From a virus (taxonomy: Duplodnaviria > Caudoviricetes), in the IMG/VR virus record IMGVR_UViG_3300036945_000596, positions 1 through 44,508 of that record: 44,508 bases of DNA, one strand, 5' to 3'. A model generated the notes under the pieces. The model had not been told where the DNA came from, did not search any database, and worked only from the letters and a program-made list of their open reading frames with translations. Shown one piece after another: positions 2,822 to 23,500 of this stretch; the stretch's first letter is position 1; every line of letters begins with the position of its first letter. The position numbers were made by a program, and so were the translations under genes.

Positions 2822-2915
2822 CGCGGTCATCCCTGGCCATCTGCATCAGCGCAGCGGTGGCGAAGCCCGCGAGGTAGCACACCCAGCACAGGATCACGAC
2901 TTGCCACCAGCTCAT
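2814..2915 (-). CDS. 33-aa membrane peptide
   Basis: MSWWQVVILCWVCYLAGFATAALMQMARDDRDD; ATGA overlap with the Cro-like gene stop. Confidence 0.55.
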   Translation of the reverse strand: MSWWQVVILCWVCYLAGFATAALMQMARDDRDD

Positions 2916-3241
2916 AGGGTCAACTCCAGTTGTCGGGCATCAACGATGGGGAACTCCGAGACGATGGCCTGGCCCTTGAGGCACTTCTGCGCGTACTCAC
3001 ACTGCAGGCAGGCCTCGGACAGATCGGTGCGGTAGATCCTGGGCAGCCGGCCCTTGCTGGCCTTGTGCATCTCGGCAGTGGAGCGCTCGATGGCACCGGC
3101 ACGCTCAGCGCTGGCCGTGCGGTGGCCGCCTGCGTACTGGTAGAGCATGCCTCGCGTGGTGCCCACACGCTCTGCCAGGAGCTCTTGTTCGTCGACCGTG
3201 GCGGCGGCCATCCAGGCCTTCATGGAAGTGATGGTTTTCAT
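2912..3241 (-). CDS. Cro-like HTH regulator
   Basis: QELLAERVGTTRGMLYQYAGGHR...A.AIE...I.RTDL (Cro/YdaS-like), C-terminal CxxCxxxxxC; divergent from the CI-like gene. Confidence 0.75.
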   Translation of the reverse strand: MKTITSMKAWMAAATVDEQELLAERVGTTRGMLYQYAGGHRTASAERAGAIERSTAEMHKASKGRLPRIYRTDLSEACLQCEYAQKCLKGQAIVSEFPIVDARQLELTL

Positions 3242-3248
3242 GGCCGGG

Positions 3249-3300
3249 AGTTTAGCAGGCGGTAAAGGTATTGCAGCAAGCTGCGCGCGTTTGCTACCCT
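3249..3300. promoter_or_regulatory. Divergent promoter/operator region of the genetic switch
   Basis: Minus-strand TG-C-TAAACT (3257-3249), plus-strand TG-C-TACCCT (3292-3300), operator-like TAGCA-GG-CGGTA (3253-3264) and half-site TGCTA (3292-3296). Confidence 0.55.
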
Positions 3301-3308: not shown

Positions 3309-3722
3309 ATGAGATCCGTCTACGACCAACGCCGGGAAAACCTGCGCAAGCTGATCACCGAGTGGGGTGGCCCCACATCGATGGCCAAGAAGCTAGGCCA
3401 CAGCAATGGCTCCTACGTGGCCCAGCTGGGCGGGCCCAATCCCTCACGCGAGATCAGCGAGAAAGTGGCCAGGGATATGGAGGCCAAGCTCGGCCTGCCG
3501 ATCGCCTGGCTCGACCAGGAGCACACCAGCAACGGCCGCCAGCTGGATCAGGAGACGCTGTCGGCCTGCGTGCGTGCCGTGGCGGCCGCAATCCGTGACG
3601 CAGGTCTCAAGCCTGATCCCGATGCTTATGCGAATCTGGTGAGCCTGGTCTATGAGCACGCCAAGCTCACGGGCCGGGTTGACGAGCCATTCATCCACAA
3701 ATTACTGGGACTGATCCGATGA
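3309..3722 (+). CDS. CI-like repressor (N-terminal XRE HTH, no recognisable S24 peptidase domain)
   Basis: RRENLRKLI..WGGPTSMAKKLG.SNGSYVAQL....REISEKVARDMEAKLGLPIAWLD is a typical phage repressor N-domain; divergent from the Cro-like gene. Confidence 0.8.
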   Translation: MRSVYDQRRENLRKLITEWGGPTSMAKKLGHSNGSYVAQLGGPNPSREISEKVARDMEAKLGLPIAWLDQEHTSNGRQLDQETLSACVRAVAAAIRDAGLKPDPDAYANLVSLVYEHAKLTGRVDEPFIHKLLGLIR

Positions 3723-3933: not shown

Positions 3934-3961
3934 GAGCCGGTGTTTTAGCATCTGCTACAAT
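3932..3961 (+). promoter_or_regulatory. Early sigma70-like promoter with overlapping operator
   Basis: TTGAGC-18 bp-TACAAT; TAGCA-TC-TGCTA at 3946-3957. Confidence 0.65.
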
Positions 3962-3993
3962 TCCTCATCGCAACAAATTCACCGGAGCTCAAC

Positions 3994-4332
3994 ATGCAAG
4001 TCCACTTCGATACCTACAAAGTCACAGGCCAGATCACCACCAAGCGTGGCGAGCCCTTCGACCTGCACAGCGTCGAGATCACCATCGGCAAGGACCGCCG
4101 CGAAGTCGCCTGTGGCGCGGTGTACAACGGCTGGATCAAGATCTTCGATCTGGCCGTGCGTTTTTCCCACGGCTCCAAAATGTGGCCCGGCAGCGCCACC
4201 TACTGGATCGAGAGCGGCAACGTGAACAACCTGAGCCCCAACATCGACAAGCGCGGCCACTTCATCCTCGCAGGCTTCATGGCCGACTACGAAAACCGTG
4301 CCGTGCGCAGCCAGCACAACGCCGTCGCTTAA
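3994..4332 (+). CDS. Hypothetical early protein
   Basis: 112-aa ORF with GGAG RBS, downstream of the promoter. Confidence 0.7.
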   Translation: MQVHFDTYKVTGQITTKRGEPFDLHSVEITIGKDRREVACGAVYNGWIKIFDLAVRFSHGSKMWPGSATYWIESGNVNNLSPNIDKRGHFILAGFMADYENRAVRSQHNAVA

Positions 4333-4373
4333 CCCCTTAACCACCCGTGGCATCACGTTTTAAGGAGCCCACC

Positions 4374-4511
4374 ATGAAATACATCTACATCGTCATCGAC
4401 TCGCAAGGCCTGATCCTCGGTGCGTTCAGCAAGCAGAAAGCAGCCCAAGCCGCCGCCGACGCCCACAGCTACTTTTGCCGCATCTCTTGCGAACCCATCA
4501 TCACCAAGTAA
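4374..4511 (+). CDS. 45-aa hypothetical early protein
   Basis: MKYIYIVIDSQGLILGAFSKQKAAQAAADAHSYFCRISCEPIITK, strong TAAGGAG RBS. Confidence 0.65.
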   Translation: MKYIYIVIDSQGLILGAFSKQKAAQAAADAHSYFCRISCEPIITK

Positions 4512-4521
4512 GGAGCCCACC

Positions 4522-4830
4522 ATGACAACACGCCAAAAACTGATCGACCACCTAGCCAACCTAAAGCTCGCACGCGACGAGGCCTTTGCTACAGGTGACT
4601 GGGAGCACGTCGACTATCTGGGGCTGTGCATCGACGACACCCAAGACGCCCTCACAGCGCAAAATCTTATCGAGGCCATCAAGGCCAAGCCTGGCCACCA
4701 AGTTTTCCAAGGCAGCACTGGCGGCGCGGTGATCGTCGCCATCACCCGCGCCAACAGCGTCGCCCAGCGCAGCGTGTGGCTGGGTCGTCGCAGCACCATC
4801 GAAAACCTGCAGGCCATCTTGGCCGCCTGA
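4522..4830 (+). CDS. Hypothetical early protein
   Basis: MTTRQKLIDHLAN..., TAAGGAG RBS. Confidence 0.7.
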   Translation: MTTRQKLIDHLANLKLARDEAFATGDWEHVDYLGLCIDDTQDALTAQNLIEAIKAKPGHQVFQGSTGGAVIVAITRANSVAQRSVWLGRRSTIENLQAILAA

Positions 4831-4842
4831 GAGGAGCCCACC

Positions 4843-5073
4843 ATGACCACCCTCTCCTTCACCTACCAGGCCCTGCCCGGCACGATCGAAACCCAGGGCA
4901 CCGACGTGTTCGTGCGTTGGGGCGGTGCCTCCTTCCAAAAGGAAGCCGCCGTCGGCCCCCTGGCCATCGCCATCGACCAGGCGATCGCCGCCCAGGCCGA
5001 GCGCGACCGCAACACCCGCACCCACTACGCCAGCATGAGCCGCGCCGCTCGCCGCCGTTTTCTTGACGACTGA
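4843..5073 (+). CDS. Hypothetical early protein
   Basis: 76 aa, GAGGAG RBS. Confidence 0.7.
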   Translation: MTTLSFTYQALPGTIETQGTDVFVRWGGASFQKEAAVGPLAIAIDQAIAAQAERDRNTRTHYASMSRAARRRFLDD

Positions 5074-5086
5074 AAGGACCTGAACC

Positions 5087-5176
5087 ATGAAACGCGAAAC
5101 CCTCTACGACATCGCCACCGCCGTGGTCATCGGCATCGGCCTGGCCGCCGTCCTGGTTTACGGCTGGCCGCTGTGA
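5087..5176 (+). CDS. 29-aa membrane peptide
   Basis: MKRETLYDIATAVVIGIGLAAVLVYGWPL, GAAAGGA RBS. Confidence 0.6.
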   Translation: MKRETLYDIATAVVIGIGLAAVLVYGWPL

Positions 5177-5201
5177 CCGCCAGAAAAGATTTCCCCAAAG
5201 C

Positions 5202-5224
5202 TGTAGCAGACGCTACAATATAAT
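5202..5224 (+). promoter_or_regulatory. Operator plus -10 elements ahead of the replication operon
   Basis: TGTAGC-AGAC-GCTACA palindrome (5202-5217), TACAAT (5214-5219), TATAAT (5219-5224). Confidence 0.65.
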
Positions 5225-5256
5225 TTTTCAACAGCTAAACCCGAAAGGAAGCAACC

Positions 5257-5697
5257 ATGAGTATCGAACAAGCCCTCGCCGAGAACACGGCAGCCATCAA
5301 CGCCCTGATCGGCGTCTGGTCCAAGCTCAACGCCCAGGCCAATCACATCGACGTGACCGCCCCTGGCGACACCGTCGTCGCTGCTGGCAAGACTGTCGCC
5401 GCCAAGCCCGAGAAGGCTGTCGCCAAGCAGGAGCCCAAGCCCGACCCAAAGCGCGAGAGTGCTGCGGAACCTTCCGCACCGGAAGCGCCCGCTGCACAGA
5501 CTGCCTCCTCGAGCGAGCCCGTCGACTATCCAACCCTGCAAAAGGCGGTGTTTGCCCTGGCCGGCAAGAGCCGTGAAGCAGCTGCTGCTGTGGCCGCCAG
5601 CATGGGCGTGAAGACGTTCAAGGAGCTTGACCAGTCCAAGTGGGCCGACGCCCTGGTCGCGGTCAACGCCAAGCTGGCCGAGCTCGAGGCTGCGTAA
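5257..5697 (+). CDS. Conserved phage protein upstream of DUF2800
   Basis: MSIEQAL.ENT N-terminus, Ala/Pro/Lys linker, C-terminal helical domain (MGVKTFKELDQSKW); usual synteny in APSE/BPP-1-like replication modules. Confidence 0.75.
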   Translation: MSIEQALAENTAAINALIGVWSKLNAQANHIDVTAPGDTVVAAGKTVAAKPEKAVAKQEPKPDPKRESAAEPSAPEAPAAQTASSSEPVDYPTLQKAVFALAGKSREAAAAVAASMGVKTFKELDQSKWADALVAVNAKLAELEAA

Positions 5698-7011
5698 ATG
5701 ACCGCCGCCCACAGCTACTGGTCCGCCAGCAAGTTCGAGAGCCTGATGCTTTGCCCCGGCAAGATCGTGCTCGAGGACGGCGCGCCAGACAACACCAACG
5801 CCTACGCTGCCGAGGGCACCGCCGCGCACCAGGTGCTGACCTGGGCGCTGCAGGAGGAGCGCCCTGCGTCTGCTTACATCGGCCGTTTGATCCACCTGGA
5901 CAGCCGAGGCAAGGTCTGCGGCCCAGACATCAACGTGCTTGAATTCTCCTTCGAGGTGGACCAGGACATGGCCGATCACGTCCAGACGTGCATCGACTAC
6001 TGCCTGGATCTCAAGGGCGACGACGGCGTGCTGTTCGCCGACATCCGCGTGAACTACTCCAGCTACCTGGACGTAGAGCACGACACCGCCTGGGGCACCG
6101 CCGACGTGATCATCGCCCGTGGCGATGAGCTGATCGTCGTCGACTTCAAGTACGGCCGTGGGGTCGAGGTCGACGCCGAGAAGAACCCGCAGATGTCGCT
6201 GTACGGCCTCGGCGCGCTGCAGGCATACCAGGGCCTGGTCGCTGACTTCGAGCGCGTGCGCCTGGCCATCAGCCAGCCCCGCGTGAAGCGCGCGCCCAGC
6301 GAGTGGGACTGCACCGTCGAGGCGCTCGAGACCTGGGGCCGGTCGACTGCACGCAGTGCGGTGGTTTCCTGCAAGCTCGCTGCCGAGTTCAAGAACGACA
6401 CGCCGGTCGAGCCCGAGCTGTGGGAGCAAACCTACCTGCGCCCCGCCGAGAAGGCCTGCAAGTTCTGCAAGGCCAAGGCCACCTGCCCTGCCCTGCGCGA
6501 CGAGGTGGCCGAGACCCTGGGAACAAGCGCTGCCAGCGTGGACGAGTTCATGGACCAGGAGATTGACCAGCCCACCAGCGCGAGCCCTGAGACCTGGCTG
6601 TCTGCGTGCTTGGACAAGGTCGACCTGATCGAGGACTGGTGCAAGGCGATCCGTGCCGAGGTCGAGCGCCGTCTGGTGGCCGGTGCCTCAGTGCCTGGCT
6701 ACAAACTGGTGCAAGGCAAGAAAGGCAACCGCGCCTGGGACAAGCCTGCCGAGGTCGAGGCCCTGCTCAAAACGATGCGCTTGAAGGAAGCCGAGATGTA
6801 CGACTTCAAGCTGATCAGCCCCACCACCGCCGAGAAGCTGGCCAAGGCCGGCACGATCGGCCCACGCCAGTGGCCCAAGGTGCTGGAGAAGATCACCCAA
6901 TCCGAGGGCAAGCCACATGTGGCCCCCTTAACCGATTCACGTCCGGCCCTGGTGGTCACGCCGGTCGTTGATGACTTCACCGACGTGACCACCGCTGACG
7001 ATCTCGCTTAA
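5698..7011 (+). CDS. DUF2800 Cas4-like PD-(D/E)XK nuclease
   Basis: HS..SAS...CPG, AAEGTAAH, WGTAD, VVDFKYGRG, NPQMSLYGLGA, CKFCKAKATCP, GYKLVQG. Confidence 0.9.
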   Translation: MTAAHSYWSASKFESLMLCPGKIVLEDGAPDNTNAYAAEGTAAHQVLTWALQEERPASAYIGRLIHLDSRGKVCGPDINVLEFSFEVDQDMADHVQTCIDYCLDLKGDDGVLFADIRVNYSSYLDVEHDTAWGTADVIIARGDELIVVDFKYGRGVEVDAEKNPQMSLYGLGALQAYQGLVADFERVRLAISQPRVKRAPSEWDCTVEALETWGRSTARSAVVSCKLAAEFKNDTPVEPELWEQTYLRPAEKACKFCKAKATCPALRDEVAETLGTSAASVDEFMDQEIDQPTSASPETWLSACLDKVDLIEDWCKAIRAEVERRLVAGASVPGYKLVQGKKGNRAWDKPAEVEALLKTMRLKEAEMYDFKLISPTTAEKLAKAGTIGPRQWPKVLEKITQSEGKPHVAPLTDSRPALVVTPVVDDFTDVTTADDLA

Positions 7012-7038
7012 TTTTTCTTCACTTCATAGGACCATTCC

Positions 7039-7617
7039 ATGTCTACACAATCCAAACCCATCGGCCGCATCCTGATCAAAAACGTGCGCCTGGCATTCCC
7101 CAACCTGTTCGAGCCCACCACCGTGGCTGGCGAAGGCAAGCCCCGCTACAGCGCCACGCTGCTGATCCCTGCTGACCACCCACAGATCGCTGAGATCCGC
7201 GCCGCCCAGGACGCGATCGCCAAAGAGAAGTGGCGCGACAAGGCCGCCGCCATCGTGCGTGGCCTGGACAAGCAGGACAAGCTGGCGCTGCACGACGGCG
7301 ACACCAAAAGCAAGTACGACGGTTTCCCTGGCAACTTCTTCGTGAGCGCTGCCGCCCAGGAAAACGCAGCACCGACCGTGATCGACCGCGATCGCAGCCC
7401 GCTGTCTGCCAAGTCTGGCCGCCCCTACGCTGGCTGCTTCGTGAACGCCTCGATCGAGCTGTGGGCGCAGGACAACAGCTACGGCCAGCGCGTGAACGCC
7501 CAGCTGCGTGGCATCCAGTTCTACGCCGACGGCGACTCGTTCAGCGCAGGCCGCCCAGCCGATGCTGACGAGTTCGAGGAAGTCACCGAAGGCGCAGGTG
7601 CCGACGACTTCGCCTGA
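7039..7617 (+). CDS. Single-stranded DNA-binding protein (DUF2815 / T7 gp2.5-like)
   Basis: VRLAFPNLFEP, LHDGD, YAGCFVN, LRGIQF..DGD, acidic tail ending DDFA. Confidence 0.9.
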   Translation: MSTQSKPIGRILIKNVRLAFPNLFEPTTVAGEGKPRYSATLLIPADHPQIAEIRAAQDAIAKEKWRDKAAAIVRGLDKQDKLALHDGDTKSKYDGFPGNFFVSAAAQENAAPTVIDRDRSPLSAKSGRPYAGCFVNASIELWAQDNSYGQRVNAQLRGIQFYADGDSFSAGRPADADEFEEVTEGAGADDFA

Positions 7618-7620
7618 ACG

Positions 7621-7647
7621 AAAAAAGGCCCGCTGTGAGGCGGGCCT
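7621..7647 (-). terminator. Hairpin whose U-tract is on the minus strand
   Basis: AGGCCCGC-tgtgag-GCGGGCCT preceded by AAAAA on the plus strand. Confidence 0.5.
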
Positions 7648-7671
7648 AAAACCTTCAAGGAGAAAGCAACT

Positions 7672-7700
7672 TGCCCCGCGATTATAGCGGGGCAGTTTTT
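7672..7700 (+). terminator. Terminator-like hairpin between SSB and DNA polymerase
   Basis: TGCCCCGC-gattata-GCGGGGCA followed by GTTTTT. Confidence 0.55.
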
Positions 7701-7745
7701 GATGGGGCCTGGCCACCGGTCTCCATCAAAAACTGAAAGACCAAC

Positions 7746-9830
7746 ATGACCACCCTCTGGTTTGACTGCGAGACATTTTCCGAGTGCGACCTCAAGACTG
7801 CCGGCACGCACCGCTACGCCGAGCACGAGTCGACCCGCATCACCGTCGCTCAATGGGCGATCGACGACGGCGAGCCGGTGGTGGCCGACTGCACAAACAT
7901 CGACTGGAAAGTCACGGCCGTTCCCCTCTTCGACGCTCTGCGCGACCCCACCGTCACCGTCGTGGCGCACAACAGCATGTTCGACCGCACCCTGCTGCGT
8001 CACTGCTGGGGCATCGACGTGCCCGTGGAGCGCTGGCAAGACACGATGATCCAGGCCATGTCACACGGCCTGCCTGGCAGCCTGGATAAGATCGGGCAGA
8101 TCGTTGGCCTCGAAGAAGACAAGGCCAAAGACAAGCGCGGCCGCGAGCTGATCCAGCTCTTTTGCAAGCCGCGACCAAAGAACAGCATTTTGCGAAGGGC
8201 CACCCGTGAAACACACCCCGAACAGTGGGCCGAATTCCTCGAGTACAGCCGACAAGACATCGTCGCCATGCGCGCCATCGGCAAGCGCCTGCCCTCCTGG
8301 AACTATCGCGCCGGCCACCCCGAGCTTGCCGTCTGGCACCTTGATCAGCGCATCAACGATCGCGGAGTGGCGGTCGACCTGGAACTCGCGGAAGCCGCCA
8401 TCGACGCTGTTGCTCGAGAGCAGAAGCGACTGAAGGCCGACGTCGTCGAGCAGACCAACGGCCTGGTGACCAGCGCCAGCAAGCGCGACCAGCTGCTCGC
8501 GTTCATCTGCGCCGAGCACGGCGTCGACCTGCCAGACATGAAGGCCGACACGCTGCGCCGCCGGGTGGAAGATCCCGACCTGCCCGAGGGCGTGCGCCTG
8601 CTGCTGTCGATCCGCCTGGAGGCCACCAAGACCAGCACCGCCAAGTACAAGGCCCTGGTCAACGCCTCGAGCGACGACGGCCGCCTGCGCAACACGCTGC
8701 AGTTCGCTGGCGCGCAGCGCACGGCGCGCTGGGCCGGTCGCATCTTCCAGCCCCAGAACATGCCCAGGCCCGACATGAAGCAGCCCGAGATCGACGAGGG
8801 CATCGAGGCCTTGAAGCAAGGATGCGCCGAGCTCTTCTTCAACAACACCATGCGCCTGACCGCCAACACCGTGCGCGGCTGCATCGTGGCGCCACCCGGC
8901 AAGAAGCTCGTGATCGCCGACCTGTCCAACATTGAGGGCCGGGGTCTCGCGTTCCTGGCCGGCGAGCGCTGGAAGCTCAAAGCCTTTGCCGACTTCGACG
9001 CAGGCATCGGCGAAGACTTGTACAAGGTGGCCTACGGTCGTTCGTTCAACATCGACCCGAAGGAAGCCACCGGCCAGAAGCGCCAGATCGGCAAAGTGAT
9101 GGAGCTGGGCCTGGGCTACGAGGGCGGCGTCGCTGCGTTCTTGACCTTCGCCGCCGTCTACAACATGGACCTCGAGGACCTGGCCAAGGCGGTGTGGGCC
9201 ACGGCCTCACGCGAGGCGCTCGAGAACGCGCAGGGCATGTGGACCTGGGCGCAGAAAAAGAAGCGCACCCTGGGCCTGCCGATGGATGTCTACGTGGCGT
9301 GCGAAGTGCTCAAGCGCGCCTGGCGTGACGCGCACGCCGCGACCTCTGCGCTGTGGGCTGCTGCGGGTGAGGCCGTGCGCCTGGCCATCAAGAACCCTGG
9401 CGAGTCGTTCCCGATCGGCCAGCACCTGAAGGCGCGCCGCGATGGTGCCTGGCTGCGCATCCGCCTGCCCTCGGGCCGATACCTTTGCTACATCAACCCC
9501 AGCGTCGACGACGACGGCCAGATCACCTACTTCGGCGTCAACCAGTACACGCGCCAGTGGGGCCGCATCAAGACCTACGGCGGCAAGCTGATCGAGAACG
9601 CCACCCAGGCCTTCGCCCGCGACATCCTGGCCTACAACATGCCCGCGATCGAAGCCACGGGCTACGAGATCGTGCTGTCGGTGCACGACGAACTGCTGAC
9701 CGAGACGCCCGACCGCGAAGAGTTCAACGCCGACAAACTCGGCAACATGATGGCCACCGCGCCGGCCTGGGCAAAAGGAATTCCCCTGGCGGCAGCAGGG
9801 TTTGAAACGTACCGATACAGAAAGGACTGA
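7746..9830 (+). CDS. Family A DNA polymerase with 3'-5' exonuclease
   Basis: Exo motifs FDCET, AHNSMFDR, YSRQDI; polymerase motifs ADLSNIEGR, RQIGKVMELGLGY, SVHDE. Confidence 0.95.
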   Translation: MTTLWFDCETFSECDLKTAGTHRYAEHESTRITVAQWAIDDGEPVVADCTNIDWKVTAVPLFDALRDPTVTVVAHNSMFDRTLLRHCWGIDVPVERWQDTMIQAMSHGLPGSLDKIGQIVGLEEDKAKDKRGRELIQLFCKPRPKNSILRRATRETHPEQWAEFLEYSRQDIVAMRAIGKRLPSWNYRAGHPELAVWHLDQRINDRGVAVDLELAEAAIDAVAREQKRLKADVVEQTNGLVTSASKRDQLLAFICAEHGVDLPDMKADTLRRRVEDPDLPEGVRLLLSIRLEATKTSTAKYKALVNASSDDGRLRNTLQFAGAQRTARWAGRIFQPQNMPRPDMKQPEIDEGIEALKQGCAELFFNNTMRLTANTVRGCIVAPPGKKLVIADLSNIEGRGLAFLAGERWKLKAFADFDAGIGEDLYKVAYGRSFNIDPKEATGQKRQIGKVMELGLGYEGGVAAFLTFAAVYNMDLEDLAKAVWATASREALENAQGMWTWAQKKKRTLGLPMDVYVACEVLKRAWRDAHAATSALWAAAGEAVRLAIKNPGESFPIGQHLKARRDGAWLRIRLPSGRYLCYINPSVDDDGQITYFGVNQYTRQWGRIKTYGGKLIENATQAFARDILAYNMPAIEATGYEIVLSVHDELLTETPDREEFNADKLGNMMATAPAWAKGIPLAAAGFETYRYRKD

Positions 9831-9832
9831 TT

Positions 9833-9848
9833 TAGCACATGCTACAAT
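9833..9848 (+). promoter_or_regulatory. Operator overlapping a -10 element
   Basis: TAGCA-CA-TGCTA (9833-9844), TACAAT (9843-9848). Confidence 0.65.
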
Positions 9849-10636: not shown

Positions 10637-10943
10637 ACGCGACATCGAGGACTACCTGACCAAGCGGGTCAAGGCAATGGGGGGTGAGGTGCGCAAGGTC
10701 CAGTGGATCGGCCGCAACTCAGCACCCGATCGCCTGGTGATGCTGCCCGTTTGGGAGCCGTCACCGGGCAACCGTTACGCTCGCACCTTCTGGGTCGAGC
10801 TCAAGAACCCCAAGACCGTCGTCACCTTTCCCGCAGACGCACGCGAGCGCGCCCAGCACCGTGAGCACGAACGCATGCGAGCCTTGGGCCAGCGCGTCGA
10901 AGTGATCGGCACCCTCTACCAGGTGGAGGAGCTGCTGTCATGA
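10629..10943 (+). CDS. VRR-NUC domain nuclease (putative resolvase)
   Basis: ERDIE..L..RVK.MGG..RK, APDRLV, WVELK, Q.REH..M..LG..VEVI. Confidence 0.9.
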   Translation: MLERDIEDYLTKRVKAMGGEVRKVQWIGRNSAPDRLVMLPVWEPSPGNRYARTFWVELKNPKTVVTFPADARERAQHREHERMRALGQRVEVIGTLYQVEELLS

Positions 10944-11437
10944 CATTGATTGAACGAGTCACCACGCACGTCATCGAAGACGGCGAGTGCTGGAACTGGA
11001 CCGGCGCGCTGCAGAGCTGCGGGTCCACGCCCACGATGCGCTGGCAGGACAAGATCCAGGCCGTGCGCAGGTTGATCCTGCTCGAGCGCGGCCATGCCCC
11101 CAACAAAATGGTGGCGACCTACACCTGCGGCAACTCGGCCTGCGTGCACCCTGACCACGTCGCCTGGGCCAAGCGCCAGGTCGTGCAGCGACGCACCACC
11201 CTCGAGCAGGGCCACCAGCACGACATGCTCCGTCGCAAGAAGCTGGCCGACAACGCCCGCCAGCGCGGCAAGCTGACGCTGGAGCTCGCCGAGCAGGTGC
11301 GCCAGGCCGAGGGCAACCAGTACGAGATCGCCGCGCGCTTTGGCGTCAGCCAGGCCACCGTGAGCTCGATCAAGCTGGGCAAGACCTGGCGCACCTACGG
11401 GGCCAACCCGTTCGCAGGACTGGGGGCGCGGCCATGA
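10940..11437 (+). CDS. Degenerate His-Me/HNH zinc-loop protein with C-terminal HTH
   Basis: CWNWTG, YTCGNSACVHPDHV, KLT...QYEIAARFGVSQATVSSIKLGKTW. Confidence 0.75.
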   Translation: MTLIERVTTHVIEDGECWNWTGALQSCGSTPTMRWQDKIQAVRRLILLERGHAPNKMVATYTCGNSACVHPDHVAWAKRQVVQRRTTLEQGHQHDMLRRKKLADNARQRGKLTLELAEQVRQAEGNQYEIAARFGVSQATVSSIKLGKTWRTYGANPFAGLGARP

Positions 11438-11604
11438 AGTCCAGCAAAAACAGCCCCGGCCGCCCAGCCCTGGTGCCGGGTGAGATCCGACACAAGACCT
11501 CGGTCAGCTTGACGCGCGAGCAGCAGATCCAGTTCCGCCGAATGGGCGGCAGCCGGTGGTTGCAGCAGCTGCTGACCCAGGCGCTGAAAGAGCGCGATGC
11601 GTAA
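11434..11604 (+). CDS. 56-aa ribbon-helix-helix-like DNA-binding protein
   Basis: PGRP...TSVSLTREQ..F.RMGGSRWLQQLL; ATGA-coupled upstream, overlaps the helicase start. Confidence 0.6.
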   Translation: MKSSKNSPGRPALVPGEIRHKTSVSLTREQQIQFRRMGGSRWLQQLLTQALKERDA

Positions 11605-12991
11605 GTCCTACACACCCCGCCCCTTCGCCGGCCTGGCCATGGCCCACATGTCGCTCGTGCAGCGCTGCGCCCTCTGGGCCAAGCCCGGCATGGGCAAGAC
11701 CGTGATCACGATGACGTTCTTGGACCACCTGCACAACGTGGTGGGCGAGGACGCGCCGACCCTGGTGCTGGCCCCGCTGCGCGTGGCACGCGACACCTGG
11801 GCCAACGAGGCCAGCAAGTGGCAGCACCTGTCAGACATGGAGGTCGTGCCCGTGGTCGGCGACGTGAAGCAGCGCACAGCTGCCCTGCGCCGCCCTGCTC
11901 AGGTCTACACCACCAACTACGACAACCTGGTCTGGCTGCGCCAGCACTTCAAGGACTCCGGCAAGGCCTGGCCCTTCCGCACCGTGGTGGCCGACGAGAG
12001 CACCAAGCTCAAGGGCTTCAGGCTGCGCCAGGGTGGCGTGCGTGCGCAGGCCCTGGCCGGCGTGGCACACAAGGACGTTCAGCGCTGGATGAACCTGACG
12101 GGCACGCCAGCCAGCAACGGCCTCGAGGATCTGTGGGGCCAGACCTGGTTCCTGGACGCAGGCGTGCGCCTGGGCCGCACGTTCTCGGCATTCCGTGAGC
12201 GCTGGTTCGTGCCGATGAAGACCGGCAACAGCCAGTTCCACCAGTGGCGCGCAGCCGAGCACGCCGCCGACGACATCCACGCACGTTTGTCTGACATCTG
12301 TCTGACGCTGGACCCCAAGGACTGGTTCGACTTGAAGGACCCGATCGTGAACGTGGTCGAGGTCGAGCTGCCGGCCACCGCCAGGATCAAGTACCGCGAG
12401 ATGGAACGCGAGCTCTTCACCATGATCGACACGCACGAGGTCGAGGCCATGGTCGCTGCAGCCAAGTACGGCAAGTGCCTGCAGATGGCCGCCGGTGCCG
12501 TGTTCCTCGAGGACGGCGTCACCTGGGTGAAGGTCCACGATGAGAAGCTGGACGCCTTGCAGGAGCTCGTGGAGGCCACCGGCGACGATCCCCTGCTGGT
12601 GTCCTACCACTACACCCACGAGCTCGAGCGCATCGTCCAGCGCTTCCCTGACGCCCTGGACCTGTCGAACAAGGGCCACATGGCCCTGGCCATGGCGGGC
12701 AGGGGCAAGCTCTGGTTGGGCCACCCGGCCAGCATGGGCCACGGTGTCGACGGTTTGCAGGAGCACTGCAACACCGTGGTGTTCTTCGCGCAGGACCCCA
12801 ACCTCGAGTACCACGACCAGATCCTTGAACGGGTGGGACCGATGCGACAATTCCAGGCAGGCAAGGATCGCCCTGTGTTCCTGCATTACCTGGTGGCCAG
12901 GGGCACGATCGACGAGCTCGAGATGAGCCGCAGACAAACCAAGCGCAGCGTGCAAGACGCGCTGATGGATTACATGAAAGGCAAACGATGA
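11597..12991 (+). CDS. SNF2-like superfamily 2 helicase
   Basis: PGMGKT, LAPLRVA, TNYD, ADEST, LTGTP, GHGVDGLQ, QILERVG..RQ. Confidence 0.93.
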   Translation: MRKSYTPRPFAGLAMAHMSLVQRCALWAKPGMGKTVITMTFLDHLHNVVGEDAPTLVLAPLRVARDTWANEASKWQHLSDMEVVPVVGDVKQRTAALRRPAQVYTTNYDNLVWLRQHFKDSGKAWPFRTVVADESTKLKGFRLRQGGVRAQALAGVAHKDVQRWMNLTGTPASNGLEDLWGQTWFLDAGVRLGRTFSAFRERWFVPMKTGNSQFHQWRAAEHAADDIHARLSDICLTLDPKDWFDLKDPIVNVVEVELPATARIKYREMERELFTMIDTHEVEAMVAAAKYGKCLQMAAGAVFLEDGVTWVKVHDEKLDALQELVEATGDDPLLVSYHYTHELERIVQRFPDALDLSNKGHMALAMAGRGKLWLGHPASMGHGVDGLQEHCNTVVFFAQDPNLEYHDQILERVGPMRQFQAGKDRPVFLHYLVARGTIDELEMSRRQTKRSVQDALMDYMKGKR

Positions 12992-13374
12992 TTCAGAAAC
13001 TTTGCAGCACCTGCCTGCACATGGCCACCTCCACGCGCGAGGCCCCGTGCAAGGATTGTTTGCGCTTCAACGAGACAAACCCGATCGACGCCTGGACGCC
13101 TCGCCCCGGCGCAGTCATCGAGGTCACGAGGCGCATCGATGCGTCAAACCCGGCCAGCCCGCTCGACGTCCAGGTGGCTGGCGGCCACTACAAGAACAAA
13201 GCAATCCAGCCGGTCGAGTACATCCACGCCAACAAGTTGAACTTCCTCGAGGGCTGCATCGTCAAGCGCATCACCCGCTGGCGCGACAAGCCGGCCGAGT
13301 CCCGCTTCCAGGACCTGGAGAAGATCAAGCACGAGGTCGACCTGCTGATCGAGATGGAGAAGCGGCATGGATGA
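12988..13374 (+). CDS. DUF3310 domain protein
   Basis: QVAGGHYK...IQPVEYI...FLEGCIVK...R...DLEK..H. Confidence 0.85.
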   Translation: MIQKLCSTCLHMATSTREAPCKDCLRFNETNPIDAWTPRPGAVIEVTRRIDASNPASPLDVQVAGGHYKNKAIQPVEYIHANKLNFLEGCIVKRITRWRDKPAESRFQDLEKIKHEVDLLIEMEKRHG

Positions 13375-13558
13375 GATCGACCTGGCCCAGGAGCGCGACT
13401 ACCTGGCCACCCAGAACTCGATGCGGATGAAGAAACCCGAGGGCCCGATGGCCACCGGGCGCTGCCTGTATTGCGACGAGATCCTGGACGACCAGCGCCG
13501 CTGGTGCGATGCCGAGCACCGCGAGCAGTGGGAAAAGGAGGCACGCCGTGGCCGCTGA
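13367..13558 (+). CDS. Small Zn-binding protein (DksA/TraR-like architecture)
   Basis: MDEIDLAQE...GRCLYCDE....RRWCDAEH. Confidence 0.65.
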   Translation: MDEIDLAQERDYLATQNSMRMKKPEGPMATGRCLYCDEILDDQRRWCDAEHREQWEKEARRGR

Positions 13559-13742
13559 GATGACCTTCCTGGCCGAGCTGCCCGCAGGCTACGACGAGCG
13601 CACCCGCATGGCCTTGAACGTCTGCAACGAGGTGATCGTGATGCACCCCGAGCACCCGCCCTTGCTGCTACAGCCGACGGGTCAGTGGGTTGCAATCCAG
13701 CCCCAGCCCGTGCATCGTGCACAGAGTTCTAGCACCTGCTAG
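13548..13742 (+). CDS. Hypothetical protein
   Basis: GTG after GGAGG RBS (alternative ATG at 13560); IVMHPEHPPL. Confidence 0.55.
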   Translation: MAAEMTFLAELPAGYDERTRMALNVCNEVIVMHPEHPPLLLQPTGQWVAIQPQPVHRAQSSSTC

Positions 13743-13745
13743 AAC
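13726..13745. promoter_or_regulatory. Extended operator palindrome
   Basis: GTTCTAGCA-CC-TGCTAGAAC. Confidence 0.65.
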
Positions 13746-13794
13746 GACGCAGAGCACGATGTCCCCCTAGTGCTCTGGTGGCTTTACAAATTTG

Positions 13795-13822
13795 TAAGGT
13801 CACAATATACATTATGCGTCCC
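13795..13822 (-). other. dif-like XerCD recombination site; putative attP
   Basis: Minus strand GGGACGCATAA-TGTATA-TTGTGACCTTA versus E. coli dif GGTGCGCATAA-TGTATA-TTATGTTAAAT: XerC arm 9/11, core 6/6, XerD arm 4/11. Confidence 0.75.
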
Positions 13823-13832
13823 AAAACGGGGG

Positions 13833-13875
13833 TTGACGGTATAGCGTCTGCTAAAGGAAACTGTAGCGCATGCTT
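13833..13875 (+). promoter_or_regulatory. Putative promoter of the DUF3653 gene with operators
   Basis: TTGACG (13833-13838), TAGCG-TC-TGCTA (13842-13853), near-match TAGCG-CA-TGCTT (13864-13875) over the start codon. Confidence 0.55.
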
Positions 13876-14280
13876 GAGATCAACGCCCTGCCTGGCCGCC
13901 ACCTGCGTGCCCTGATCGAACTCATCGGCCAGCCTCGGGTCGAGCGCGAGCTCAACGTCCACCGCACCACGATCCGGCGCTGGCTCGCCGGCCAGGTGCA
14001 GATCCCAGGCCACCAGCACCAGGCCATCCGCATGCTGCTGGGGGACCTGCCTGGGACCTGCGGAAAGTGGACCGGGTGGCGCTTCCATGACGGGCAGCTG
14101 ATCGCCCCAGGCGGCGATCACTTTCGATCGGGCGACGTGCTCTCGCTCATCATCCTGCGCCAGCAGCTCACGGCCCAGCGCCGGGAGATCGAGGCACTCA
14201 AAGTCCGCCTGGCCATCACCGAGGAAGCAGAGCGGCACCACGCAGGTGCCGCCAACGAGGACCTGCGGGCCCGCGCTTAG
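13870..14280 (+). CDS. HTH-DUF3653 protein; XafT-like Xer recombination activation factor (putative)
   Basis: N-terminal HTH (VERELNVHRTTIRRW..G..IP), GDLP....WTGWRFHDGQLIAPGG..F (DUF3653-like), then a coiled coil; adjacent to the dif-like site. Confidence 0.75.
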   Translation: MLEINALPGRHLRALIELIGQPRVERELNVHRTTIRRWLAGQVQIPGHQHQAIRMLLGDLPGTCGKWTGWRFHDGQLIAPGGDHFRSGDVLSLIILRQQLTAQRREIEALKVRLAITEEAERHHAGAANEDLRARA

Positions 14281-14705
14281 TTCATGCCCGAGGAGTAGAC
14301 GTTGATCGTGCCACTGGTCACAAGCGTCGTGCCCCCGGCGTCAGAGTAGATCTGCACCGACACCACCGCCGTCTTGCTGGTTCCGGCCGTGGCCGACCAG
14401 GTGAAGGAGCGCGTGCTGGAGAGCTGGTAAAGCGTGCCGCTGGTGAGCCCCGTGTCCCAGGCCGCGCCCGAGGTCAGCGTGAGTTTGATCCAGTACCCGT
14501 TGCCGATGCCCGTGGTCGCGGGCTCGTACCACCGCGTGGGACCAGCGGACTGGTTGCCCACGTACGTAATTGCGCCACCGCTGGTGAACAGGATGGCGGC
14601 CGATGCGTTGATGAACGGCTTGACGTCGCGCACCGCCATCGCGTCGAGCGGGTTCTGTATCCCCAACTTGATGTCGAATCCCAGAGGGCGCGCAGCGAAC
14701 GTCAC
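14277..14705 (-). CDS. Hypothetical beta-rich, probably virion-associated protein
   Basis: Thr/Ser/Gly-rich 142 aa; last gene of the late strand, coupled to the upstream gene. Confidence 0.65.
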   Translation of the reverse strand: MTFAARPLGFDIKLGIQNPLDAMAVRDVKPFINASAAILFTSGGAITYVGNQSAGPTRWYEPATTGIGNGYWIKLTLTSGAAWDTGLTSGTLYQLSSTRSFTWSATAGTSKTAVVSVQIYSDAGGTTLVTSGTINVYSSGMN

Positions 14706-15085
14706 TTGAAATCCTTGGACAGGCTGACGTACCAGAAGCCGGTCGCGGCACGGTAGGTGGCCACCAGCAGGTCAACCGAGTTGGCCGCCGTGGAGAGCAC
14801 GCCAGCGGTGCCGCCCTGCCACTTGAAACTGGTGGGCCAGGTCATCGTGCGCGAGCCGGTCGCGTCCTGGGTGATGAACCAGTTGAGGGTCTGCCCGTCT
14901 TTCAGGTTGCTGAAGGTGGGCGCAGTCGTGACGTTGGCGGTGAAGGTAGTCGTGAAGACGTTGGACAGCGCGCAGTTGACGGCCATGGCCGTGGCGCTGA
15001 AGGTCACAGCCACCGGGGGCGTGTGGGCGTTGCTGGGAACGCCAGCGGAGAAGTCGGTCATTGAACCGGGTACACGGGTGGTCAT
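14702..15085 (-). CDS. Tail-fibre-tip-like beta-domain protein
   Basis: GQTLNWFITQDATGSRTMTWPTSFKW.GG....LST.AN.VDLL pattern typical of phage fibre C-terminal domains; AAAGGGAG RBS. Confidence 0.7.
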   Translation of the reverse strand: MTTRVPGSMTDFSAGVPSNAHTPPVAVTFSATAMAVNCALSNVFTTTFTANVTTAPTFSNLKDGQTLNWFITQDATGSRTMTWPTSFKWQGGTAGVLSTAANSVDLLVATYRAATGFWYVSLSKDFK

Positions 15086-15118
15086 CTACTCCCTTTCGAT
15101 GATGGGCTGCCCATATTG

Positions 15119-15652
15119 TCAGGCGGCCTCGTCGGAGACGGACACGCCCGACAGAAACAGCGCGCGCTCGTCCTTGCGCCGGCGCACCAGGCCTGGCAGC
15201 TCACGCCCTCCCCCTTTGGTCCAGGCCATGAACGCATCGGCTGCGCCTTCCCAGTCGCCGCGATTGGCTTTCATGCGGATCGTGGAGCGCTGCAGGTTGC
15301 CTAGCCCAAAGTTGAAGGAAATACTGACCAGAGCGTCGAAGCTGCCTTGACGGCCAACCACACCGGGAACAAGTCGAAGAACACCACGTTCAAAACTTGC
15401 GACGTCCTGCGCGAATAGTTCGTTGATCTCTTCCTTGCTCCAGACACGGTTGTCCTCCGGTTTCAGTGGGTACTCTTTGCGGATCATCGCCGCAGGCTTC
15501 TCTTCGGTGCGCGCCATCGGCAGGCGGATCTGCTCCTGGTACAGGACGTGGCCGTAGCCCACCGTCCAGATGTGCGCGGGGCACAGGTAGGGTCGGTTCC
15601 TGCACCCCTCGTAGCGGTGCATCAGGTCGCTGCCCGCTTTGCCCAACTTCAT
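15119..15652 (-). CDS. Endolysin, GH24 lysozyme
   Basis: YEGCRNRPYLCPAHIWTVGYGH (E-x8-C-x5-T), FDALVS..FNFG.G, LPGLVRRR..E..LFL. Confidence 0.93.
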   Translation of the reverse strand: MKLGKAGSDLMHRYEGCRNRPYLCPAHIWTVGYGHVLYQEQIRLPMARTEEKPAAMIRKEYPLKPEDNRVWSKEEINELFAQDVASFERGVLRLVPGVVGRQGSFDALVSISFNFGLGNLQRSTIRMKANRGDWEGAADAFMAWTKGGGRELPGLVRRRKDERALFLSGVSVSDEAA

Positions 15653-16155
15653 TTTTTGGCCCAGTTGCGCGAGCCGAACCAGAACCCGATGATGCCACCG
15701 AGCATGGCCATCTCGTCAGAGCTGAAAATGATGTCGGCGTACTTGATCAGGTCGTCGACGTTTTGCACCAGGCCTGGGTGCATGAACAGGTAGGCGGTGA
15801 GCGCGGCGTTAATGGCCACCAGCTCGCCCACAAAGATGTAGGTCACGGTCGGGCGCACGGTGCCGACGTAGCTCGACACCCAGGTGGACGCCTTCTCGAG
15901 CACCGACTTGTCGTGGTCGTAGGCGGCCACGGTCATCTGCGCTTCGGTCTGCATGGCGATCTGGTCGGTGCGGATCTCCTCGACCTTGACCTGGGCAGCA
16001 AAGCCCTGCGCTGCGAGCGCGAGCTCACGCTCGGTCTGCACGGCGGCGAGTGCCAGCTCATGTTTTTGGTCGGCCCTGTTCTGGAAGAACTCCAGGAGCT
16101 TGGGCAGGCCGGAGATCAACAGACCTCCAAGAGTTGAGAACAGTGACAGCATCAA
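15649..16155 (-). CDS. Holin-like multi-pass membrane protein
   Basis: N-terminal hydrophobic segment, DQKHELAL, VRPTVTY, two further TMs, IIGFWFGSR; directly upstream of the lysin. Confidence 0.7.
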   Translation of the reverse strand: MMLSLFSTLGGLLISGLPKLLEFFQNRADQKHELALAAVQTERELALAAQGFAAQVKVEEIRTDQIAMQTEAQMTVAAYDHDKSVLEKASTWVSSYVGTVRPTVTYIFVGELVAINAALTAYLFMHPGLVQNVDDLIKYADIIFSSDEMAMLGGIIGFWFGSRNWAKK

Positions 16156-16769
16156 TTTCCCCTTTTGGTTAACATGGCGCTGGCGATCTCCAGCATGAAT
16201 TTTATTTGCTCAAGGTTCTGCGGCTGCTCTGCCCAGCCCACAGTGATCTGCCCGACAAAACGATGGCTGTCTGGCGGGACGCTGACTCGGCAGGTGAACC
16301 CCACACCCTTCTCGATGTACCAAAGCCCCACCTCAGACTGAGCGAAACGGTATTCCCCGCAGGGGGTGTCGTTGGTCATCAGTTTGATGACATCGGCGTT
16401 GTTGGCTGAGTTCTGACTGAACAGCCCCACATCGATGTCCTCGATGCTCTTGTCCCTGCCATCCTTGGTGTACGCCTTGTACAACACGCGACTGTTGAAC
16501 AAAGGGTTGACCTTGAAGATGGCGACCACTGTCGCGCCGGTCTTTTTGAACAGCATTCCACTGGCGTCATCTGCACGACCGGTGTTGATCTCTGGCAGCT
16601 TCTTGGACTCCTTGTAGGCGTCCCGCATGAACTCTTGGTTCTGCCACATGAAGTAACCAGCAAAAGCCACAATGCCCATGGTGAGGATGGCAAACAGCTT
16701 GAACGGCGAGTCCACATACCCGAGCACCTTGTCCAGGGTTGTGTTGGCGTTCAGCTTCTCGTCGCTCAT
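16152..16769 (-). CDS. Single-TM protein with large soluble C-terminal domain (T4 T/T5-holin-like topology)
   Basis: One N-terminal TM, then an alpha/beta domain (PCG...FTCRVSVPP....VGQITVGW) in the lysis cassette. Confidence 0.6.
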   Translation of the reverse strand: MSDEKLNANTTLDKVLGYVDSPFKLFAILTMGIVAFAGYFMWQNQEFMRDAYKESKKLPEINTGRADDASGMLFKKTGATVVAIFKVNPLFNSRVLYKAYTKDGRDKSIEDIDVGLFSQNSANNADVIKLMTNDTPCGEYRFAQSEVGLWYIEKGVGFTCRVSVPPDSHRFVGQITVGWAEQPQNLEQIKFMLEIASAMLTKRGN

Positions 16770-20502: not shown

Positions 20503-23500
20503 TCAGCGCTGCTTGCTCTCGGGGCTGGCGGTGCCGGTCACCAGGCCTCGAGCCAGATCCACGGGGCCTGTCGGCTCGATGCTGCCGCCGGCCATGCCGG
20601 CCAGGTAGCCGATAGGTCGGGCGACACCGTAGATCGGCAAGCCGGTGATCATCGTTGCAGCAGCTGCCACATCGCGCACAGCCTTCTGCTTGTTGCCGTC
20701 CTCGACGATCGCCTTGTACACGCTCGAGGGTGCGCTAACGGTTGACTCGATCAGACTGATCGCAGGCGACAGCGAGAACTTGTCGTCGGCCGGGTTGTCG
20801 TTGAACCGGTTGATCACGAGCTGAGCAGCCTGGCCCACGATCGGAATCTGGGCGGTGAGGCCTCGCAGCGTTCCCAGGCCGAACACGGCCAGCAGCCAGT
20901 CGTCCAGCCAGCCGTCTTTGTCCTCGTCCTCGGGGCCGCCACGGAAGACCTGGGCGATCGCTTCGGCCACCCAGATCGGGGCGAGCAAACCGGCGATGGC
21001 CACATACAGCACCTTGCCTGCGCCCTTCCTCAAGCCCACCTCGTCGGCGATCTGCTTGACGGCGGTCGCGTTGGTGTTGGCCATCATGTTGAAGTAGCTC
21101 ACGAACTGCGTGAACAGTCGTGCGTACCCTGGACCAGACTCGAACCGGCTGATGTCCTCCGGCAGTGTGGTGCCCTGGGTCTGGCGGATCACGCCGTCTG
21201 CAAAGCGCACGGCGTCGTTGTGCTCCATCTTCTGCTCGATCGCCTGGTTGTAGGCGGCCGTCCAGATGATCGGGCTCATGGTGTTGTCGACGGCGGACTG
21301 CATGAAATACGCATGGCGCTGGGTCCAGGCCTGGCCGCGCTCGAGCAGTGTCGGGTCGATCAAGATCTCCTCGATCGCGTCGTTCATCGCCCCGACCTCA
21401 TTGAGCATGCGGTCCTTCATGTAGGGCGAGCTGTCGGCGACGGTGGTCTTCATCGCCTTGGGGTCGGCCATGAACCGGGCGGTGGCGCTCATGATCAAAC
21501 CAGGTTTGACCTTGACGCCAGCCATGGTGAAGCCGGTGATCTGCTGCACGGTGTTCGACAGGTTGGCGAACATCAGCGCCATGCCCGCACGCGAGCGCGC
21601 AGCGGACAGGAAGCGCGACAGCTTGCGGTCGCCGACCACCGGGGTCTCGACCACCTGGCGCGCCGAGCGGTTCAACCAGGGGATCAGCATGCCCTCGTAG
21701 GCACCGGGGTCGATGCGGTCCAGGGCGTAGCTCACGCGCTTATTGGTCAGCAGGCGGCGCACGTCGGTGACCGCACCCTGCATGTGCGAGAACAGCAGCA
21801 CCTTGTCCATGTGCTGGCCAAGCGCGCGCAGGTCCAGCAGCAGGGGCTGGTTGTACTCGACGCGGGACTTGGTGAAGCCCGACGGCGCAGCCGGGAAGGC
21901 GTAGGCCATCGACTCGTTCTCGCCCTCGGCCAGCTCGCGCAGCTTGGCGTCTTTGACCAGGCGGCTGTCGGTCTGGGCGGGCAGATAGCCGCCGCGCCAC
22001 ACGTTGCCGAACGGGTCGACGAACTCGTTGGCGGTGACCTCGGCGAAGTAGCGGCCAAACACCTTGCGGTGGGTCTCTTGCGCCAGGGGCTTCATTTCCT
22101 CGAGCAGATCCCACACGCCCTGGGCAAACTGGAAGTGCGCCGGGTTGAGCGTGCCCTCGCTGGCCAGGCGCTGGATGAAGTTGTCCCACTTGGTGGTGTC
22201 GAGGTTGCCCTCGGCGTCCTGCGTGGCCCAGCCCCGACCGAGCAAGAGCTTGCGCTTGTTGCTGTCGTTGCCGGTGTGCAGGATCGCGTGCAGCAGTTCA
22301 GCAGCGCCCGAGTCGCGGGCGTTGCCGAACGTGTAGCCGAGCTCGGGGGCCTCAACCGGACCTGCGGGCAGGTACGGGGCGACGTTCTTTAGCAGCTCGG
22401 TAAACTTCTTGCGGTAGGCCACCTTGTCGGTGCGGTAGCGGTCGGCGGCGTCCTTGACGGGCTGGAACACCAGGCGCAGGAACGGGCCGCCGAACTTGCC
22501 GTCCAGGCGCTCGGACCACTGCTCGACGCGGGACAGGATCGCCTTGGCAAACTGCAGCTTGATGCCGCGCTCTTGGCTGTCGGTGATCGCGCCCTTCTCG
22601 CCGGGGATCGTGTCGGGGATACCGATCTCGCCCATGCGCTCGACCAGCTGGTCGGCGGCCTCCTCGATGTCGATCATGTTGCCGTCGACTTCCATCTGGC
22701 GGCTGGACTTGGCCAGCGACCACATGGCGCGCAGCTCGTCGTTCAAGCCGCGCAGCTCCTCCATGGTCATCTCGCCCAGGGGCTTGGCGTTCAGCAGCGC
22801 GCCCTGCACGCTCGGCTGCAGCGCGGCGTACATGACCGGGTCGTTCTTGGCCACGGTCTCCATGTAGGCGAGCGCAGTCTTCTCGAGCCGGGGGGCGACG
22901 TCGTACGCGCCCAGGATGGCGCGCATCGCGTTGACCACGTCAGGATCACGGCCACGCTCGACGACTTTCTCGTCGTTGCCCTTGGTCACGCGCTTGAAGA
23001 ACTCGAGGATCTTCTTCACCTCGAGCTGGGCGTCCTGCAGTGCCTTGACGGCTGCGTTGTTGAGCACCTGGTCGCGCTTGGCCTGCACGGCCTCCTCGGT
23101 CTTACCCTTGGATGTGGCGTCCTGCCAGGCCTTGCCTGCGCGGGCCTCGGCACTGCGGTGCTGCCAGGCGGCGTTCTTCAGGTCCTTGATCCGGCGGCGC
23201 GCGGCCAGGTTGGCAGCGAACTGCTTGGCTGCGTTGGTGATCGCGTTGACGGTGATGGCGCGGCCGTTGCTGGCGGTGCGGCCAGTGTCCTGGCGCGGGT
23301 TCAGCATCTCGGCCTGGCTCTTGAGCTCGGTGGCCAGGCTGCGGGCGCGGGCCTCGTTGTGCACCGCCTCGTTGGCGGCGGCCTCCAGGGCCTCGGGCGT
23401 GGCGAGCTCGCCGTGGCGCTCGAGCATGCGCTGGTCGGTCATGCCTTCGATCACAGAGCCGATCGGCTCCGCGTCGAGGATGGCGCGCACCAGCTTGTCG

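Follow-up and report, generated by a model that had tools for sequence, protein, structure and literature searches.

The window, by which we mean the whole stretch of DNA that was analysed (44,508 nt, positions 1 to 44,508 of the Caudoviricetes record IMGVR_UViG_3300036945_000596), carries a compact group of genes and sites at the end of its early arm. An SNF2 helicase gene, a DUF3310 gene and a DksA-like gene (11597..13558, plus strand) mark the slot in which BPP-1-like phages hold their integrase. They are followed by a dif-like site on the minus strand (13795..13822) with a conserved, putatively accessory region on its XerD side (13710..13798), a predicted promoter (13833..13862, plus strand) and a gene for a 136-aa XafT-like protein (13870..14280, plus strand).

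Judged by its gene content, the window is a near-complete BPP-1-like podovirus of ~45 kb. It encodes portal, GP7 capsid, Bbp16, Bbp19 and T7-like tail proteins as well as a replication set of DNA polymerase A, DUF2800, SSB, primase and the SNF2 helicase. The record is linear in topology with a completeness rating of 100%, and its ends, mapped on the closest relative, enclose an unsequenced gap of ~670 bp. The closest named helicase is that of BPP-1 with 52% identity (48% for BcepC6B), so the window represents a separate lineage among BPP-1-like podoviruses. In the virion arm, a 2775-aa protein (20503-28830, minus strand) contains LPD22 and ART-PolyVal (phage polyvalent ADP-ribosyltransferase) domains and a middle part that varies across relatives. 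An HNH endonuclease gene in the early arm (10940-11437, plus strand) is found in some relatives only.

An earlier note on this DNA had reported a CI/Cro switch, and we indeed find a divergent repressor pair: a predicted CI-like repressor of 137 aa (3309..3722, plus strand; phrog_12107, E 2.6e-14), conserved in 5/5 relatives, and a Cro-like HTH gene (2912..3241, minus strand; phrog_35, E 2.5e-4).

The dif-like site, the XafT-like gene and their control

The dif-like site, a predicted attP and cassette entry point, consists of a XerC arm (13822-13812), the spacer TGTATA (13811-13806) and a XerD arm (13805-13795). It agrees with E. coli dif at 19/28 positions, and the reference sequence used agrees with the table in PMC2731167. 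The matches are spread unevenly: 9/11 in the XerC arm, 6/6 in the spacer and 4/11 in the XerD arm (positions 1, 2, 4 and 5). The next-best dif match in the window reaches 16/28, and the site is the sole one of its kind there. In 200 dinucleotide shuffles 19/28 was reached once, and no exact run exceeded 11 nt compared to 15 observed. Re-reading and shuffles thus uphold the earlier description of a dif-like 28-mer with a 15-nt exact run of E. coli dif, a good XerC arm and a degenerate XerD arm. Across six genomes, 13/14 pattern hits fall inside this junction region.

We scanned viral sequences with a pattern running from the spacer onward, with no XerC arm in it. All 44 loci found (44/44) have a XerC-like arm and a neighbouring helicase; a DUF3653-type gene lies nearby in 36, while 6 are cut within 1.2 kb and 2 are without the gene. 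The site classes used below come from our own patterns, with 3/103 site calls dropped by eye before counting.

The core of the XerC arm and the spacer hardly vary among 45 distinct TGTATA-type 28-mers, and the XerD arm is free except for G5. G5 is present in 41/45 variants; the 18 variants that lack T1 all have G5, and the 4 that lack G5 all begin with TT. According to Miele et al. (PMC9226527), XafT requires G5 or T1 in the XerD arm, and TT offsets the loss of G5. All 45 variants have T1 or G5, positions that played no part in site calling, although the variants share descent and are not 45 independent tests of the rule; the window site has both. These natural variants thereby repeat a rule found by saturation mutagenesis of the TLC attP.

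The main spacer is TGTATA in 40/45 variants, whereas the spacers of class-B sites take 13 forms. TGTATA is the dif centre in 6/10 beta-proteobacterial rows of the table in PMC2731167, as far as that table was available. The dif sites of Rhodoferax and Polaromonas (Comamonadaceae) have the same spacer as the phage and different XerC arms. Rubrivivax and Limnohabitans, suggested as hosts by labels of MAG entries, were set aside as too weak; the Rubrivivax label sits on a 3.4-kb contig.

The XafT-like gene, a predicted Xer activation factor, starts 47 bp from the site and combines an HTH, DUF3653 and a long C-terminal helix, with WTGWRFHDGQLIAPGG at residues 67-82. The HTH and the DUF3653-like motif had been proposed from the letters alone, with an HMM search as the suggested check; the search of 13870-14280 gave a PF12375 match of 28 bits (cut-off 22.4, E 2.5e-6), and the position was confirmed. 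The HTH is weak by Pfam in the window protein, and HTH_23 is detected in 29/106 homologues. In the predicted structure (pLDDT 91), helices at residues 3-56 form the HTH, a small beta unit (71-78) carries the WxGWRF motif, and a long helix of 49 residues spans 87-135. We found 345 homologues, and PF12375 is present at E <= 0.01 in 90/106 of those aligned. The two proteins returned by a fold search (E 8e-11 and 8e-7) are uncharacterised and belong to uncultured tailed phages; the PDB gave weak HTH matches only. In PHROGs the gene matches a family that bears the label 'tail assembly protein' (E 8.6e-6), and tblastn found no match to the gene in annotated phages or plasmids.

Many homologues (for example P0082 and P0119) have a proline-rich N-terminal extension of ~55 aa. 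It is out of frame in several loci, possibly through a frameshift or as a separate ORF, and in the extension loci L075, L078, L045, L072, L116, L044, L046 and L115 the site lies ~190-220 bp from the matched gene start. In four other loci (L002, L020, L099 and L198) the site and the XafT-like gene are separated by an ORF in which HNH-like motifs were recognised by eye. The two of these ORFs that were scanned have no Pfam match, and in L002, L020 and L099 the spacer differs from TGTATA.

XafT is described as an HTH plus DUF3653 protein that binds and activates XerD (PMC6744903). Neither PF12375 nor a profile found a match in the pTLC record, which also showed no attP, and XafT is likened here by its described architecture. 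DUF3653 alone does not prove an Xer-activator role, since PSB15, a DUF3653 protein of Xanthomonas inoviruses, is described as binding a packaging hairpin and as dispensable for integration (bioRxiv 10.1101/2024.03.19.585677). One could therefore imagine a true attP used by a XerC-first route without an activator, the DUF3653 protein being a palindrome-binding regulator or a PSB15- or XafV-like protein; XafV is reported to aid only XerC-initiated reactions (bioRxiv 10.64898/2026.06.12.731946). Such a route would suit the strong inverted repeat that follows the spacer (z <= -2 in 25/38 variants), and also the three loci that keep an intact site beside a gene that is truncated or lost (L186 and L172, the latter equal to L159 and L070) or undetected (L132). 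Nonetheless the XerC arm lies outside the inverted repeat, so no hairpin attP of the CTX type is formed. The CTX-type arrangement, a hairpin that pairs two inverted dif-like sites, is also ruled out by the single site of the window and the direct orientation of the extra sites in relatives. Inovirus packaging, the step in which a PSB15-like protein would act, does not occur in a podovirus, which has a terminase and a portal. Finally, HTH and DUF3653 in one chain beside attP is the layout of XafT, while the Xanthomonas phages, as far as they are described, have separate ORFs. Given these points, we regard the XerC-first route as highly unlikely and favour a XafT-like activator. For L186, L172 and L132, lysogeny has possibly been lost, or the factor is supplied in trans.

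The promoter of the XafT-like gene was read by eye and from upstream conservation, with a -35 element TTGACG (13833-13838) and a weak -10 candidate (13857-13862). Between the two lies a 16-bp operator-like palindrome (13840..13855), 17 bp from the XerC arm, and a weaker copy covers the start codon of the gene (13862-13877). Further copies are found between the CI- and Cro-like genes (3251-3266) and in three intergenic gaps of the early arm, at 3944, 5202 and 9831 (3944..9846). The operator pattern was built from the window, so its enrichment there (5 compared to 0.02 in shuffles) is circular. Independent support comes from the recurrence of the palindrome in five relatives and from its fixed distance to the sites: a copy lies within 50 bp on the XerC side in 61/61 TGTATA-type sites (53 of them at exactly 17 bp) compared to 0/39 other sites. 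The CI-like protein is predicted to bind these operators and thereby repress the XafT-like gene in a lysogen. An operator in this promoter fits the description of TLC, in which XafT is detected before integration and not after, its expression being shut down (PMC9226527), and it offers a possible answer to how Xaf expression is turned off post-integration.

On the other side of the site, the accessory region contains a GTGCA-N3-TGCAC box (13710-13722), an operator-like palindrome (13728-13743), a degenerate second box with an inverted repeat (13752-13777) and a palindrome that overlaps the outer XerD arm (13782-13798). The GTGCA-N3-TGCAC box is found at fixed offsets in site classes A and B alike. 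We considered a structured RNA in this region and rejected it: RNAalifold gave the terminal palindrome only, the hairpin registers shift among phages, and the repeats resolve into DNA palindromes common to operators and boxes.

The integrase slot and the search for integrated copies

The earlier note had also seen no recombinase gene in the window. This holds: a profile scan of the 53 ORFs found no integrase family, and PF00239 is absent from 5/5 genomes (the window and four relatives). PF00589 is absent from 5/5 relatives that are at least 90% complete, two of them with terminal repeats. As positive controls, the PF00589 and PF00239 searches succeeded in 14/14 and 13/14 control genomes. An integrase beyond the window ends, which the note had named as a weak point, was looked for in the ~670-bp gap as it appears in four relatives. 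The gap holds nothing but the first few codons of terL and an ORF of 154-184 aa that we take to be terS.

In BPP-1, xis and the integrase directly follow the helicase and bbp48, and in BcepC6B the integrase lies between the helicase and the convergent lysis genes. We surveyed this slot in 53 loci sampled by helicase, so the DUF3653 gene did not drive the selection. Among viral loci with a helicase identity of at least 60% and at least 1.5 kb of downstream sequence, 22/25 have the site. Two of the three site-less loci (L177 and L180) encode a PF00589 integrase (E 9e-18), with ORFs of equal length, position and score, and have neither the site nor the XafT-like gene. The third site-less locus is L211. 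The helicase of L177 is 90-92% identical to those of three site-bearing phages, and L177 nests among site-bearing phages in a quick-method tree (SH-aLRT 100 for the 5-row clade). At helicase identities of 55% or less, the 22 loci, scanned by their ORFs, include 2 with an integrase and 1 with the gene and no detected site, and most others have neither. The swap seen in L177 among close kin indicates that a dif module and an integrase module exchange in one slot. As read from these loci, this exchange is the strongest argument that the dif module would do the job of the integrase.

The gap before the tyrosine integrase of L177 (2995-3314) contains six copies of GTGCATC on either strand, out of 8 in the whole 8.2-kb locus. 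The box next to the dif-like sites has GTGCATC as its half-motif, and an accessory factor may be common to both modules. In one distant relative, a LodA-like lysine oxidase gene (L203:9506-11419) adjoins the integrase; it is probably host DNA flanking a prophage.

With no integrase, a dif copy in the integrase slot and a XafT-like gene, the phage likely borrows XerC and XerD of its host. We consider it probable that in this phage the integrase is replaced by a TLC-type lysogeny module, made up of the HTH-DUF3653 gene and a dif-like site that also acquires and exchanges cassettes. After infection, when CI is absent, the XafT-like gene would be expressed and XerC would bind the good arm. The factor would recruit XerD to the poor arm and activate it without FtsK. 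After crossover in the TGTATA spacer, the poor arm would lie at the left junction, and the right junction would be a functional dif. CI would subsequently occupy the operator of the promoter, and FtsK would fail to excise the prophage owing to its poor arm. Upon loss of CI, the factor would be expressed again and the prophage excised.

Such integrated copies were searched for in several collections, mostly of free virus contigs. A GTDB scan (alignment A1 and two short peptide patterns) found no full-length relative, and two weak partial matches in actinobacterial records were set aside as unrelated HTH matches. The right-junction pattern had 0 matches in viral contigs, TGTATA with a canonical XerD arm was absent from 207 redundant locus records, and no host-phage junction was seen in the viral scans or in 31 metagenome loci. 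Among the matches listed (120 proteins in each of two homologue searches) there is no contig of more than 47 kb. Likewise, among the matches listed for contigs of 4 sequencing runs over 11500-16500, none has a joint at the site, and one contig, from the likely source run, spans it intact. A loose end at 13821 (X2), tried as a host junction, continues as phage-type promoter sequence with no host arm. The TLC-type attP/Xaf route proposed earlier is thus partly supported, by the features of the module, the slot swap, the XerD-arm rule and the operator, while the related prophages split at this site that it implies were found in these collections neither at dif nor at any non-dif site.

The missing host-phage junction in the collections searched would be expected if Xer acts on the site and the phage never integrates, the site serving cassette shuffling only or multimer resolution like cer of ColE1. 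The conserved accessory region of ~100 bp indeed recalls plasmid resolution sites, and the arrays described below are common (19/56). We nonetheless judge a purely non-integrating role unlikely. The module is swapped one-for-one with a tyrosine integrase in a close relative, and its main spacer keeps the dif sequence, in contrast to the drifting spacers of class B. The degenerate XerD arm obeys the attP rule and not the dif consensus, and the 53 ORFs scanned contain no partition family. Next to lysogeny, which we prefer as the main role, the site may have an added role as a cassette platform; as a main role this seems less likely.

Cassette arrays in relatives

Among 56 relatives with distinct upstream sequence, 19 carry two to three direct dif-like sites of class A or B that flank variable genes. 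In another 29 loci, the window included, a single TGTATA-type site stands without any class-B site; the remaining 8 are truncated or show other classes only. The extra sites are all in direct orientation and delimit units of 287-1510 bp; units of class A2 bring their own operator, promoter and XerC arm. By this comparison, the window is the empty form of the site. In the filled alleles, 0.2-2.5 kb separate the XafT-like gene from the primary site.

A close empty partner was available for 5/10 loci with more than one TGTATA-type site. In these pairs the XerC side is 93-100% identical as far as the spacer, the 40 bp that follow are 10-33% identical, and in 4 of the 5 filled loci identity resumes at 86-100% past the last spacer. 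Three loci (L127, L130 and L154) share 2 kb of identical sequence on the XerD side, with 36-47% identity past the XerC arm. The same cargo is also found in different site contexts, for example in L018 and L073 (78%) and in L088, L025 and L081 (73%); L085 and L113 carry one and the same insert.

Class-B sites have arms exactly 6 bp apart and near-consensus XerD arms, in which T1, T2, G5, T6, T7 and A9 are kept in 71-100% of 21 sites. In 19/21 class-B sites compared to 10/57 TGTATA-type sites, an ORF of at least 50 aa starts with an ATG in the XerC or XerC-like arm, and the class-B arm consequently also encodes Met-Arg-Thr. A third class, with a degenerate XerC arm and a near-canonical XerD arm, follows some A2 sites at a distance of 79 or 112 bp and also occurs between some cargo genes (in L003, L018, L044, L046, L115, L076, L088 and others).

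From the slots, 43 ORFs were scanned, of which 12 match Pfam above the cut-off, 2 are sub-threshold and 29 have no match. The Pfam cargo comprises Mom (3), DNA methyltransferases (4), the CBASS inhibitor Acb3 (1), Vut_1 (2), SLOG (1) and an exoribonuclease (1); PHROGs further identifies another methyltransferase and a queuine tRNA-ribosyltransferase-like protein. Several of these genes are predicted to counter bacterial defences. The Acb3 homologue lies at L023:8236-9090 (E 6e-70). In two loci (L018:8577-9769 and L073:4464-5668) the Vut_1 transporter is paired with the queuine tRNA-ribosyltransferase-like gene, a pair that possibly serves deazaguanine DNA modification.

The arrays are likely integron-like, with movement by XerCD suggested by the breakpoints. 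The filled layout matches two routes alike, by which cassettes would arrive at attP as small circles or by joint excision from an array at dif. Alternatively, phages would swap cassettes through Xer at sites with matching spacers.

As for the cassettes alone, the extra sites could instead be promoter and translation-start repeats shuffled by homologous recombination, and not Xer sites. A repeat of ~45 bp with operator and promoter does accompany each TGTATA-type site, the ATG of most class-B sites opens an ORF with the arm doubling as its first codons, and standard excision would be blocked by the usual mismatch between neighbouring class-B spacers. Such repeats are harder to reconcile with the sharp loss of identity between filled and empty alleles at the spacer, or with the 6-bp arm spacing, XerD-consensus positions and accessory box that class B has in common with class A. 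Moreover, unrelated genes would not need identical first three codons. We therefore think this explanation rather doubtful and continue to favour Xer-mediated exchange of cassettes.

To the fullest version of this reading, a phage-borne integron in a widespread clade of uncultured podoviruses, we give an even chance. XerCD activated by the XafT-like protein would integrate the phage at dif and would also load, drop and swap counter-defence cassettes (Mom, methyltransferases, Acb3), with spacers as addresses and the XerC arm giving the start codon. In practice, the arrays form a findable hotspot for new anti-defence genes.

Comparison with known Xer systems

Xer hijacking has been described for filamentous phages, satellites, double-jelly-roll phages and islands. 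In the literature searched, with most subscription papers outside its scope, we found no report of a tailed Xer-exploiting phage or of a phage-borne dif cassette array. The DUF3653 survey in the supplement of PMC6744903 (250 genome hits) may already include tailed prophages at dif. New here, at the level of sequence comparison, are direct arrays of dif-like sites flanking variable genes in relatives of a tailed phage. If our reading is true, a tailed phage that lacks an integrase need not be lytic, and elements of this kind, located at the replication terminus, would escape prophage finders.

The TLC-phi satellite of Vibrio cholerae likewise has no integrase and is described with an attP that has a good XerC arm, a 6-bp dif spacer and a degenerate XerD arm with T1/G5 (PMC6744903, PMC9226527). 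Its HTH-DUF3653 gene adjoins attP as it does here, and post-integration silence is expected in both. Only the window combines the module with a 45-kb tailed phage that has its own DNA polymerase, a CI/Cro pair with operators, and a 100-bp accessory region, and with arrays in relatives. The window module matches the TLC attP and XafT on every testable sequence feature, with XerD binding and integration as predictions.

The dif-type double-jelly-roll vibriophages and CTX-I inoviruses have P15/XafT, a repressor and a dif-like attP (PMC12715192). In the available text of that study, dif-type and integrase-type modules alternate in one family of double-jelly-roll dsDNA phages, as here, and variable cargo adjoins the xafT homologue, as in this clade. 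These phages are non-tailed, however, and their variable region is placed between xafT and the lysis genes with no internal dif-like boundaries described; tailed phages are treated there as integrase-encoding.

BPP-1 (Bordetella, Rauchvirus) and BcepC6B (Burkholderia, Ryyoungvirus) have gene order and families in common with the window (Bbp16, Bbp19, GP7 capsid, portal, polA, DUF2800 and SNF2 helicase). Both hold their own tyrosine integrase in the slot and have no PF12375 match, whereas the window has a dif-like site and a DUF3653 gene.

The pdif sites of Acinetobacter plasmids mostly alternate in orientation. As here, accessory genes of pdif modules lie between XerC/XerD sites with variable spacers (PMC9455709, PMC7399989). 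The arrays described above differ in being phage-borne, with all-direct sites, a candidate phage activator, repressor operators and start codons in the XerC arm. Integron arrays are made of tandem single-gene units, some of them promoterless, downstream of a primary-site promoter, and their cargo includes defence-related genes. The phage arrays resemble them in these features and differ in having no IntI and no attC hairpin, with double-stranded dif-like sites for host recombinases instead.
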